Translations under genes and position numbers: made by a program | Source: a virus | Lineage: Duplodnaviria > Heunggongvirae > Uroviricota > Caudoviricetes | Length of the DNA: 14,440 bases | Virus record (IMG/VR): IMGVR_UViG_2939147180_000003 | Direction: 5' to 3' (one strand) | Notes under the pieces: model-generated | The model's database searches: none | What the model was told of the DNA's origin: nothing | The model's input: the letters and a program-made list of their open reading frames with translations, nothing else | Shown here: positions 3,725 through 5,793 of the stretch, piece by piece | How the letters are laid out: every line of letters starts with the position of its first letter | Position numbering within the stretch: position 1 is the first letter of the stretch

Positions 3725-3768
3725 ATGTTAGGTTATGCCTAATGTCATGTCAATAGGCTTAGCCTAAT
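3725..3768 (-). promoter_or_regulatory. PL-like leftward promoter overlapped by two operator palindromes (OL-like)
   Basis: On the minus strand TTGACA (3753..3748), 17-nt spacer, TAACAT (3730..3725). Operator-like 17-mers GTTAGGT-TAT-GCCTAAT (3727-3743) and AATAGGC-TTA-GCCTAAT (3752-3768), centres 25 bp apart, related to the perfect palindrome at 5776-5792. Confidence 0.5.
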
Positions 3769-3782
3769 GTTGGTCGGCGGTC

Positions 3783-3806
3783 AAAAAAAATCCCGCATAA
3801 GCGGGA
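3783..3806 (-). terminator. Intrinsic terminator-like hairpin (reads as hairpin plus U-tract on the minus strand)
   Basis: Stem TCCCGC (3791-3796) / GCGGGA (3801-3806), loop ATAA, flanked by A8 at 3783-3790 (T8 on the minus strand). Sits between the IS5 left end and the PL-like promoter. Confidence 0.5.
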
Positions 3807-3826
3807 TTTGTGTGAAATAAAGCTAG

Positions 3827-5021
3827 GGAAGGTGCGAATAAGCAGGTCATTTCTTCCCAAGCTGACTCGCTGATTAAAATTTCGCGGATCTGGGCCGATT
3901 TTTTTCCCGCAAACACATCGAATCAGCCTATTTAGACCGTTTCTTCGCCATTTAAGGCGTTATCCCCAGTTTTTAGTGAGATCTCTCCCACTGACGTATC
4001 ATTTGGTCCACCCGAAACAGGTTGGCCAGGGTGAATAACATCGCCAGTTGGTTATCGTTTTTCAGCAGCCCCTTGTATCTGGCTTTCACGAAGCCGAACT
4101 GCCGCTTGATGATGCGAAACGGGTGCTCCACCCTGGCACGGATGCTGGCTTTCATGTATTCGATGTTGATGGCCGTTTTGTTCTTGCGCGGATGCTGCTT
4201 CAAGGTTTTTACCTTGCTGGGACGCTCGGCGATCAGCCAGTCCACATCCACCTCGGCCAGCTCCTCGCGCTGTGGCGCTCCTTGGTAGCCGGCATCGGCT
4301 GAGACAAATTGCTCCTCTCCATGAAGCAGATTACCCAGCTGATTGAGGTCATGCTCGTTGGCCGCGGTGGTGACTAGGCTGTGGGTCAGGCCACTCTTGG
4401 CATCGACACCAATGTGGGCCTTCATGCCAAAGTGCCACTGATTGCCTTTCTTGGTCTGATGCATCTCCGGATCGCGTTGCTGCTCTTTGTTCTTGGTAGA
4501 GCTGGGTGCCTCAATGATGGTGGCATCCACCAAAGTGCCTTGGGTCATCATGACGCCTGCTTCGGCCAGCCAGCGATTGATGGTCTTGAACAATTGACGG
4601 GCCAGTTGATGCTGCTCGAGCAGGTGGCGGAAATTCATGATGGTGGTGCGATCCGGCAGGGCGCTATCCAGGGATAATCGGGCAAACAGGCGCATGGAGG
4701 CGATTTCGTACAGGGCATCTTCCATGGCACCGTCGCTCAGGTTGTACCAATGCTGCATGCAGTGAATACGCAGCATGGTCTCCAGCGGATAGGGCCGTCG
4801 GCCATTGCCCGCCTTGGGATAAAACGGCTCGATGACAGCGGTTATATTCTGCCATGGCAGAATCTGCTCCATGCGGGAGAGGAAAATCTCTTTTCGGGTC
4901 TGACGGCGCTTAGTGCTGAATTCACTATCGGCGAAGGTGAGTTGATGGCTCATGATGTCCCTCTGGGATGCGCTCCGGATGAATATGATGATCTCATATC
5001 AGGAACTTGTTCGCACCTTCC
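3827..5021 (-). mobile_element. IS5-family insertion sequence (1195 bp)
   Basis: Terminal inverted repeats GGAAGGTGCGAATAAG (3827-3842) and CTTGTTCGCACCTTCC (5006-5021); internal transposase matches InsH. Flanking 4-bp CTAG (3823-3826) versus CTAA (5022-5025), a near-identical YTAR duplication. Confidence 0.9.
3973..4953 (-). CDS. insH: IS5 transposase (DDE, InsH-like)
   Basis: 326 aa, [36 protein letters not shown]... essentially identical to E. coli IS5 InsH as recalled. Confidence 0.95.
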
Positions 5022-5247
5022 CTAACATTTTTAACATGTTCAATGTGATTTTTAAGACGTACTTTGAAGTTTTCCATGCATCCTCCATGCAAAGTGAAAA
5101 CCTGCTGTTAAATCAAAGCAAGTCACAATCCCGGATAGGCTTCATACAAGCCAATCCCCCACAGGGATTGAGTTATGCAAGCGAATCAATCTCAGAGCTT
5201 TTAACATGTATGGAGCTTAGAGATATTGTCCGTTAGACCATATAAGC

Positions 5248-5724
5248 TTAAGCTCTGGCTTTCGTTTGTTTTTTTCCATCTTCCTCCTGCTCTGCCCATC
5301 TCCTTATCTTCATCTCTAATGAGTCTAAATATGCTTTAGCATCGCTATCTACCCAGCCAGGTATACGCTGTCCTTGCTCTAAGAGGACAAAATCAATGAT
5401 AGCCTTTTTTTCTCTCGAAGCCTTATTATAGAGCTCGTCAATAGAACCATTTTTAACTATGGGATCTGTTGCGGGCTCACATGTATCAGTTAGCGGGTAT
5501 CCCTTTAGTCCCCAGTGCTCGGGGCCCACAACATCAGAAAAGTAGTTCCAAAGCTCTGGTAGCTTCTCTTTCGATATGGAGCCTTTATTGATCCAGTCAT
5601 GGATTGATGGGGGTTTTATTTTGAAATGACGTGCGATTTCCGCCTTACTCTTGGCAGAACCTATTGAAAGCTTCTTGTCTATGGCCTGCTCGATCGCTCG
5701 GCCCAATTCTTTACCACTAAGCAT
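5248..5724 (-). CDS. Prophage repressor, HTH (Cro/C1-type) with non-peptidase C-terminal domain (RacR-like architecture)
   Basis: 158 aa; N-terminal HTH (SKAEIARHFKIKPPSIHDWINKG); no GDSM / Ser-Lys S24 motifs in the C-terminal half; divergent from a cro-like gene across an operator cluster; GAGGA upstream of ATG 5724. Confidence 0.7.
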   Translation of the reverse strand: MLSGKELGRAIEQAIDKKLSIGSAKSKAEIARHFKIKPPSIHDWINKGSISKEKLPELWNYFSDVVGPEHWGLKGYPLTDTCEPATDPIVKNGSIDELYNKASREKKAIIDFVLLEQGQRIPGWVDSDAKAYLDSLEMKIRRWAEQEEDGKKQTKARA

Positions 5725-5793
5725 TGCCTAATAATCCTCATAACCTATAGCTTAGGCAATTCCTATTGGTTGTTTATTAGGCTTAGCCTAATA
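5716..5793. promoter_or_regulatory. Divergent immunity control region: three operator-like palindromes and a PR-like promoter
   Basis: Perfect 7-3-7 palindrome ATTAGGC-TTA-GCCTAAT at 5776-5792; degenerate copies at about 5751-5767 (CTTAGGC-AAT-TCCTATT) and 5716-5732 (ACTAAGC-ATT-GCCTAAT, overlapping the repressor start). Plus-strand TTGGTT (5765-5770), 17 nt, TAATAT (5788-5793). Confidence 0.55.

Follow-up and report, generated by a model that had tools for sequence, protein, structure and literature searches.

RacR, the prophage repressor of Rac, belongs to the small set of transcription factors that are essential in Escherichia coli K-12. Krishnamurthi et al. (2017) described GCCTAA/TTAGGC repeats in the 123-bp intergenic region between K-12 racR and ydaS, and RacR was shown to bind this region by electrophoretic mobility-shift assay and by quantitative PCR after chromatin immunoprecipitation (PMC5700373). 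DNase I footprinting of K-12 RacR by the Mruk laboratory (Nucleic Acids Research, 2022) gave 5'-ATTAGGC-3' as the site of one monomer, and three operators, O1–O3, are conserved in Enterobacteriaceae as inverted repeats of the form (T/A)TAGGC-n3-GCCTA(T/A) (PMC9638921). Here we describe a related immunity region in a stretch of viral DNA 14,440 nucleotides long (IMG/VR record IMGVR_UViG_2939147180_000003), called the window below. The window is a decayed Rac-like lambdoid prophage of E. coli with an intact relative, the Klebsiella phage KpF5. It very probably contains the immunity switch of that prophage, with RacR acting on O1–O3 beside its own start codon and on a second, left-hand pair of sites, A and B.

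The K-12 switch is known in some depth. O1 coincides with the mapped promoter PydaS (TTGACA/TAATAT), whose activity is abolished by a -10 mutation, and is the operator protected at the lowest RacR concentration, while the spacer of O3 overlaps the racR ATG; the main racR promoter, PracR3, yields a leaderless transcript according to primer extension and -10 mutagenesis (PMC9638921). When RacR is depleted, ydaG, ydaF, kilR, racC, recET, xisR and intR rise 40- to 100-fold or more (PMC6765115, PMC11014345, bioRxiv 10.64898/2026.09.06.749655). RacR represses PydaS almost fully and its own promoter about 3-fold, by autorepression only, and YdaS is itself a DNA-binding autorepressor in the racR–ydaS intergenic region. 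RacR is an octamer by size-exclusion chromatography, and its regulon has been termed uncharacterised beyond the racR–ydaS region, with xisR and intR termed "far away" from racR.

In phage lambda, each operator has three sites, the CI repressor carries a self-cleaving S24 domain, and CI bound at OR2 activates the promoter PRM from about -42. A second described system, the PaaR2/YdaS/YdaT switch of prophage CP-933P in E. coli O157:H7 (Jurenas et al. 2021, PMC8630535), has the layout of our locus: a short, S24-less, octamer-forming repressor is divergent from ydaS-ydaT, a cargo (a toxin–antitoxin pair) precedes the leftward promoter PL, and this separate PL has left-operator (OL) sites, found by motif, downstream of the repressor operon, where reporters showed repression. 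It differs in its GTTTAGTAA repeats and in having four repeats at the right operator (OR) and three OL sites, none in coding sequence.

Operator sites on both sides of racR

The repressor gene of the window (5248-5724, minus strand) encodes a 158-aa RacR equivalog (NCBIfam NF049929; 254.3 bits, cut-off 200), and RefSeq labels the identical protein RacR. It is 56% identical to K-12 RacR overall and about 85% identical in the DNA-binding domain. We searched the whole window for ATTAGGC-N3-GCCTAAT, allowing up to 3 mismatches per site. A first-pass annotation of this DNA had proposed repressor operators on both sides of the gene, and the search recovered all of them. O1 (5776-5792, ATTAGGCTTAGCCTAAT) is a perfect 7-3-7 palindrome with 0 mismatches that overlaps the TAATAT -10 of a rightward PR-like promoter by 4 nt. 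The two degenerate copies placed in the divergent region are O2 (5751-5767, CTTAGGCAATTCCTATT, 3 mismatches), overlapping the PR -35 by 2 nt, and O3 (5716-5732, ACTAAGCATTGCCTAAT, 2 mismatches), which spans the racR start codon (CAT at 5722-5724, minus strand). On the far side of the gene, left site A (3752-3768, AATAGGCTTAGCCTAAT, 1 mismatch) overlaps the -35 of a PL-like promoter by 2 nt and left site B (3727-3743, GTTAGGTTATGCCTAAT, 2 mismatches) overlaps its -10 by 4 nt. This promoter (3725-3753, minus strand) had been predicted as a leftward TTGACA/TAACAT element, and a consensus scan found it independently, with 10 of 12 matches: TTGACA (3753-3748), 17 nt and TAACAT (3730-3725), leading leftward into the early-left genes. 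The spacing claimed to be equal at both loci is indeed so, since the centres lie 25 bp apart at 5759/5784 and at 3735/3760; the third interval, 5724/5759, is 35 bp.

Sites of this quality are rare in shuffled sequence. The window holds six at ≤3 mismatches against 0.74 expected from 200 shuffles, and 1000 dinucleotide shuffles gave a mean of 0.63 at this threshold and 0.06 at ≤2 mismatches, where five are observed. None of these 1000 shuffles of the window contained two sites 24-26 bp apart.

The sixth match (ATTAGGCCAAGCATTAT, 9346-9362, 2 mismatches) lies beyond the immunity region and overlaps the ATG of an acyltransferase gene (9357-9359, minus strand). As an operator it is probably a chance occurrence: a site as good turns up in about 6% of shuffled windows, and this gene region is found in 31 E. 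coli genomes, most of them without this racR, against 9 genomes that have this racR.

Judged from its sequence, the locus belongs among RacR-type immunity regions and is not a member of the lambda CI family. It has a RacR orthologue, three (T/A)TAGGC-n3-GCCTA(T/A) repeats facing a divergent ydaS-type gene, O3 across the racR initiation codon, and O1 on the TAATAT (5789-5794) of the ydaS-like promoter. The motif and the right-hand triplet are not new, because both have been published for K-12. K-12 Rac shares with the window the protein family, the ATTAGGC half-site in a 7-3-7 repeat, the divergent YdaS-type cro gene, the placement of O1 on TAATAT and of O3 across the racR ATG, and an implied leaderless racR transcript. 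It has four right-hand sites in a 123-bp intergenic region; the window follows this arrangement base for base in alignment but has three sites in 101 bp, one operator unit fewer. The cII-like gene of K-12 is YdaT, whereas that of the window is YmfL, and the two RacR proteins carry different alleles of the C-terminal domain.

The left pair is conserved among RacR-type prophages

Relatives were gathered with a profile of 16 diverse homologues, which gave 25 loci in contigs taken from one genome per species, 80 in IMG/VR and, after removal of duplicates, 73 immunity regions; a pair was defined as two sites with ≤3 mismatches each, 24-26 bp apart. Of the 73 loci, 65 carry the left pair on the downstream side of the repressor gene, 556 to 5931 bp from its ATG. 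Two further loci have a degenerate pair, and one contig was too short to judge. On the opposite side, the flanks of the relatives contained no pair and three single matches. The left pair and its promoter are thus conserved, and the left operator consists of two sites, not three, in the window and nearly all relatives. On the right, 23 of the 25 genome loci have O1 on the -10 of the ydaS-like promoter and O3 centred exactly on the repressor ATG, matching the published K-12 O3.

The pair proposed for the window recurs in the functional Klebsiella phage KpF5, whose switch region is 96.4% identical to window positions 5024-6600 and carries the same five operator sites. It is likewise present in K-12 Rac itself, so that the motif scan of related prophages suggested in the first-pass annotation bears out the proposal. 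The K-12 sites, TATAGGTAATGCCTAAT and AATAGGCTATGCCTAAT (6629-6645 and 6654-6670 in our K-12 locus, L003; NC_000913.3 1419628-1419644 and 1419653-1419669), are 25 bp apart, lie between the racR stop codon and ydaG, and sit on a leftward TTGACA-17-TATAGT promoter. A conserved left operator on a near-consensus promoter upstream of ydaG would account for the 40- to 100-fold rise of ydaG, kilR, recET, xisR and intR at low RacR. A literature search, with most subscription journals, EcoCyc and RegulonDB outside its scope, returned no published left operator and no map of RacR binding by chromatin immunoprecipitation sequencing (ChIP-seq) or by systematic evolution of ligands by exponential enrichment (SELEX), and the left pair of RacR is apparently unreported. 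A left operator is an expected feature of a lambdoid switch; what is added is a well-supported detail that holds over K-12 and two proteobacterial classes, and it does not overturn current understanding.

In Rac prophages of the K-12 type, a sequence lying 19 bp upstream of site A may be a weak third left site (ATTAGGTTACGCT(C/T)AAA; 6673-6689 in L003 and 6554-6570 in a second locus, L007). It is absent in the window.

PR and PL are copies of one operator–promoter module

The aligned left modules of the relatives share a composite, ATTAGGC-N3-GCCTAT·TGACA-N4/5-ATTAGGC-N3-GCC·TAATAT, within unrelated flanks. The composite GCCTATTGAC at site A is nearly unvarying across the family. The right-hand composite has the same design, reading TTAGGCAATTCCTATTGAC, N4/5 and ATTAGGC-N3-GCCTAATAT in the direction of PR, and TTAGGCAATTCCTATTGAC at O2 is close to invariant among the relatives. 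In the window, the PR-like promoter (5766-5794, plus strand; TTGGTT at 5766-5771, 17 nt, TAATAT at 5789-5794), which drives the ydaS-like and ymfL genes, is placed relative to O2 and O1 exactly as PL is relative to A and B. PR and PL are two copies of one module, in which promoter hexamers are fused to half-sites (GCCTAT·TGACA and GCC·TAATAT). The fusion explains why site A, with AATAGGC, departs from the motif at one position: this mismatch, which is conserved, is the TT of the -35 hexamer (GCCTATTGACA on the minus strand). More generally, the composite is a precise marker for PL, PR and the intervening cargo slot in this widespread prophage class.

Both promoters of the window depart from their relatives. 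The PL -10 is TAATAT in KpF5 and most relatives, against TAACAT here. The PR -35 is TTGGTT here, too weak for PR to be called by the promoter consensus scan of the window; it is TTGATT in KpF5 and in all 28 IMG/VR loci with a RacR 99-100% identical to that of the window, and TTGAC(A) in most of the wider RacR-type family. TTGGTT may be a promoter-down change in a decayed E. coli remnant.

A fixed DNA-binding domain with exchangeable partners

In an AlphaFold2 (AF2) model of the window's RacR, a putative N-terminal helix-turn-helix (HTH; residues 1 to ~73), with five helices in residues 4-71 (mean predicted local distance difference test score, 73.9), is joined through a disordered linker (75-91) to a C-terminal domain that is also helical. 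Foldseek matched the model to the N-terminal domain of lambda CI, HipB, C-proteins and XRE only at E > 0.6, Pfam returned only a sub-threshold YdaS-type HTH match and no S24 peptidase domain, and a sequence search of the PDB gave zero matches. As the structural matches are non-significant, we limit the structural claim to "HTH-like".

Within the N-terminal domain (residues 1 to ~75), MLxGK...PSIHDWIKKGSISKDKLPELW...EHWGL is nearly invariant. The relatives include Achromobacter, Pigmentiphaga, Herbaspirillum, Nitrosomonas, Azoarcus and Lysobacterales, whose repressors match RacR over residues 1 to ~77 only. Such distant repressors mostly bear an S24 peptidase domain at the C terminus, and their loci retain O1, the left pair and an O3 placed on the ATG, and in most cases O2 as well. 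Seven loci, mostly of Betaproteobacteria, encode the RacR N-terminal domain, near-invariant residues included, fused to S24 (L014, L018, L021, L022, L024, L025 and L027), and the operator layout is identical in the five of them that have the left pair (L014, L018, L022, L025 and L027). This looks like C-terminal domain swapping upon a fixed DNA specificity. Because the distant relatives keep the sites with another C-terminal domain, the conserved unit is the DNA-binding domain with the operators and promoters that belong to it.

What lies as cargo between racR-type genes and the left pair is as interchangeable as the C-terminal domain. From repressor stop codon to left pair the slot measures 0 to ~5.3 kb (L014-L029, L057 and L064); it is empty in K-12, is taken by a DUF450 gene in the Klebsiella type, and in other loci contains genes for small membrane proteins or DUF5131-like (Gp37/Gp68-type) genes and their partners. 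Its position is that of rexAB in lambda.

TAAGGC half-sites occur in loci whose recognition helix reads S[L/V][V/S/Q]DW and in none with SI[H/Y]DW. Since the variant loci are few and mutually related, this covariation of helix and half-site is suggestive only, and the main argument does not depend on it.

A proposed switch and its alternatives

In the switch that we propose, RacR dimers would sit on the 17-bp palindromes through the N-terminal HTH, each monomer taking one ATTAGGC half-site. To the right of racR, O1 and O2 would cover the PR -10 and the upstream edge of its -35 and so keep the cro-like and cII-like genes off, while O3, which lies over the start codon of racR and over the -10 of its leaderless promoter, would let RacR repress its own gene. 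Some 2 kb to the left, past the racR terminator, A and B would cover the -35 and -10 of PL, as O2 and O1 do at PR, and silence the early-left operon; the terminator (3780-3809) would insulate PL from the racR transcript. We infer RacR binding to the left pair, cooperative binding of adjacent dimers and bridging of OL and OR by the octamer.

The racR promoter assumed here is a putative PRM-like element read from the sequence (5731-5759, minus strand; TTGCCT at 5759-5754, 17 nt, GATTAT at 5736-5731), which aligns with K-12 PracR3. Transcription is predicted to start at the A of the ATG (5724), which would make the mRNA leaderless. The outer half-site of O3 overlaps the -10 of this promoter, and O2 holds its -35 on the opposite strand. 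Lambda-style activation of PRM from -42 is unlikely, because O2 contains the racR -35 and is centred at -35 from the predicted start. Induction, for its part, cannot run by RecA-stimulated self-cleavage, as RacR has no S24 domain to cleave itself.

The likeness to lambda OR/OL that had been claimed for the locus holds, with some differences. The motif is shared between divergent PR/PRM and a distal PL, and the order of elements is that of lambda: PL/OL, terminator, cargo (rexAB), repressor, PRM/OR/PR, cro and cII. Both systems place several 17-bp pseudo-palindromes 24-25 bp apart over -35 and -10 elements, have a leaderless repressor mRNA, use the weakest site for negative autoregulation, and have an octameric repressor (reported for K-12 RacR). 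The differences are that a RacR-type OL has two sites, O3 lies inside coding sequence, O2 is centred at -35 on the racR -35 hexamer rather than at -42, and the C-terminal half of RacR is a helical oligomerisation domain instead of S24, with no significant sequence similarity to CI.

Several points weigh against the proposed switch. Binding to the left pair, and binding by the window's RacR in general, is predicted; the C-terminal half of this RacR is only about 30% identical to that of K-12. O2 is a poor match, with 3 mismatches, and its conservation may stem from the two promoters it overlaps and not from the repressor. Given that the PR -35 (TTGGTT) and PL -10 (TAACAT) are weaker than in KpF5 and that the prophage is decayed, the switch may be only partly functional. 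Part of the derepression that leftward genes show in K-12 could come about indirectly, by way of YdaS/YdaT or excision of the prophage. Finally, the K-12 authors ascribe the RacR octamer to the four inverted repeats of the intergenic region and not to looping.

How far do other explanations account for these sites? A reading of the palindromes as chance or low-complexity repeats devoid of regulatory meaning has nothing in its favour beyond the extra match at 9346-9362, outside the switch, and is refuted: shuffled windows never produced the pair, the placement of the sites with respect to the ATG and the promoter hexamers is conserved to the base pair, and the orthologue has been footprinted. 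We also consider it improbable that the left pair is mainly or jointly the target of the Cro-like YdaS, or else a copy of the PR module that has no function. In lambda, Cro and CI share their operators, and K-12 YdaS is an autorepressor in the same intergenic region as RacR, but at the identical K-12 PR module RacR, not YdaS, is the strong repressor, and shared use by YdaS would add to RacR control without displacing it. The PL and PR modules are near-duplicates, as a dead copy would be; yet the pair has been kept over Gamma- and Betaproteobacteria at variable distances and in unrelated flanks.

The choice is much closer for the looping step, the only part of the proposal with which a no-loop account competes. 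OL and OR could be real operators that work independently, with the octamer serving neighbouring sites only, and we hold this to be slightly short of an even chance. It agrees with the view of the K-12 authors, who tie the octamer to four intergenic repeats; the OL–OR distance also varies about ten-fold among relatives (556-5931 bp), and an insertion sequence (IS) changed it here without sign of counter-selection. Against this, OR in the type found in the window offers three sites, too few to seat all four dimers; two strong sites on each side (A/B and O1/O2) reproduce the lambda octamer arrangement; and PaaR2 is also octameric with a separate PL/OL (PMC8630535). With three right-hand sites in this allele and an octameric repressor, a bridge from A/B to O1/O2 is the natural reading, which we rate at about even. 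The arrangement suggests that the octamer may serve OL–OR bridging rather than four adjoining sites. A broader version, in which the left pair is the true OL, the octamer bridges loops of 0.6-6 kb, and the DNA-binding domain, five operators and three promoters form a portable cassette, falls a little below even in our estimate. Such a cassette would have the same specificity from Enterobacteriaceae to Achromobacter, Nitrosomonas and Herbaspirillum, with exchange of the C-terminal domain (SOS-cleavable S24 or a non-cleavable helical oligomeriser) and a variable cargo slot between the repressor gene and OL.

Prophage context and an insertion in the cargo slot

A decayed prophage beside tRNA-Ser/mtfA in E. 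coli KMi012 matches the window at 100% identity; it comprises an integrase, a ParB-like gene, an IS, racR, a cro-like gene, a cII-like gene, a methylase and a truncated rusA. Among 5426 complete E. coli genomes, 9 carry this racR allele. Opposite racR on the plus strand, the Cro-like gene (5826-6089, 87 aa) encodes a YdaS-family HTH protein (PF15943, 104 bits; P22_Cro, 30 bits), followed by the cII-like gene (6118-6570, 150 aa) of the YmfL/Phage_CP76 family.

Between racR and the left pair lies ISKpn26 (3827-5021, minus strand), an IS5-family element of 1195 bp that is absent from the first-pass annotation, with a transposase at 3973-4953 and terminal inverted repeats at 3827-3842 and 5006-5021. 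It substitutes for about 1.1 kb of the cargo found in this slot in KpF5, a DUF450 / "type I restriction endonuclease" gene, of which a remnant of about 18 codons (~5022-5077) is left here. The element is flanked by CTAG (3823-3826) and CTAA (5022-5025), both native KpF5 sequence. Six E. coli genomes share the junction and three have the intact cargo gene; the replacement makes the OL–OR distance about 85 bp longer. The intrinsic terminator at 3780-3809 (minus strand; 9-bp stem and T-run), which the scan scored as strong at 3809-3788, directly upstream of PL, ends the racR/cargo transcript just ahead of the left operator. Its hairpin is identical in KpF5 (L002 4848-4870), and it sits where lambda has the terminator downstream of rexB.

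Additional features of O3 and the PL leader

The inner half-site of O3 is racR coding sequence (ATG CTT AGT, M-L-S), and relatives whose repressors begin MLN carry GCTTAAT there, one step nearer the consensus. As this half-site is coding, the N terminus of the protein and the operator constrain one another. Window positions 5716-5738 also retain most of the K-12 off-target site for the restriction-modification controller C.Csp231I (ACTAAGCATTGCTTAAT in K-12, ACTAAGCATTGCCTAAT here), so the published lethal cross-talk might apply to this racR allele.

A small open reading frame just past PL (3556-3705) was rejected as a gene, the same frame in KpF5 stopping after 12 codons. An Rfam scan of the whole window matched a tRNA at 892-978 only, with no match in the switch or in the hairpins of the PL leader. 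These hairpins (e.g. CCGCCACTGCAATGGCGG), at ~3530-3550 and ~3590-3615 in the minus-strand transcript, are GC-rich and without T-runs; they are partly conserved in KpF5 (L002 4313-4330) and could be nut-like or Rho-related elements.

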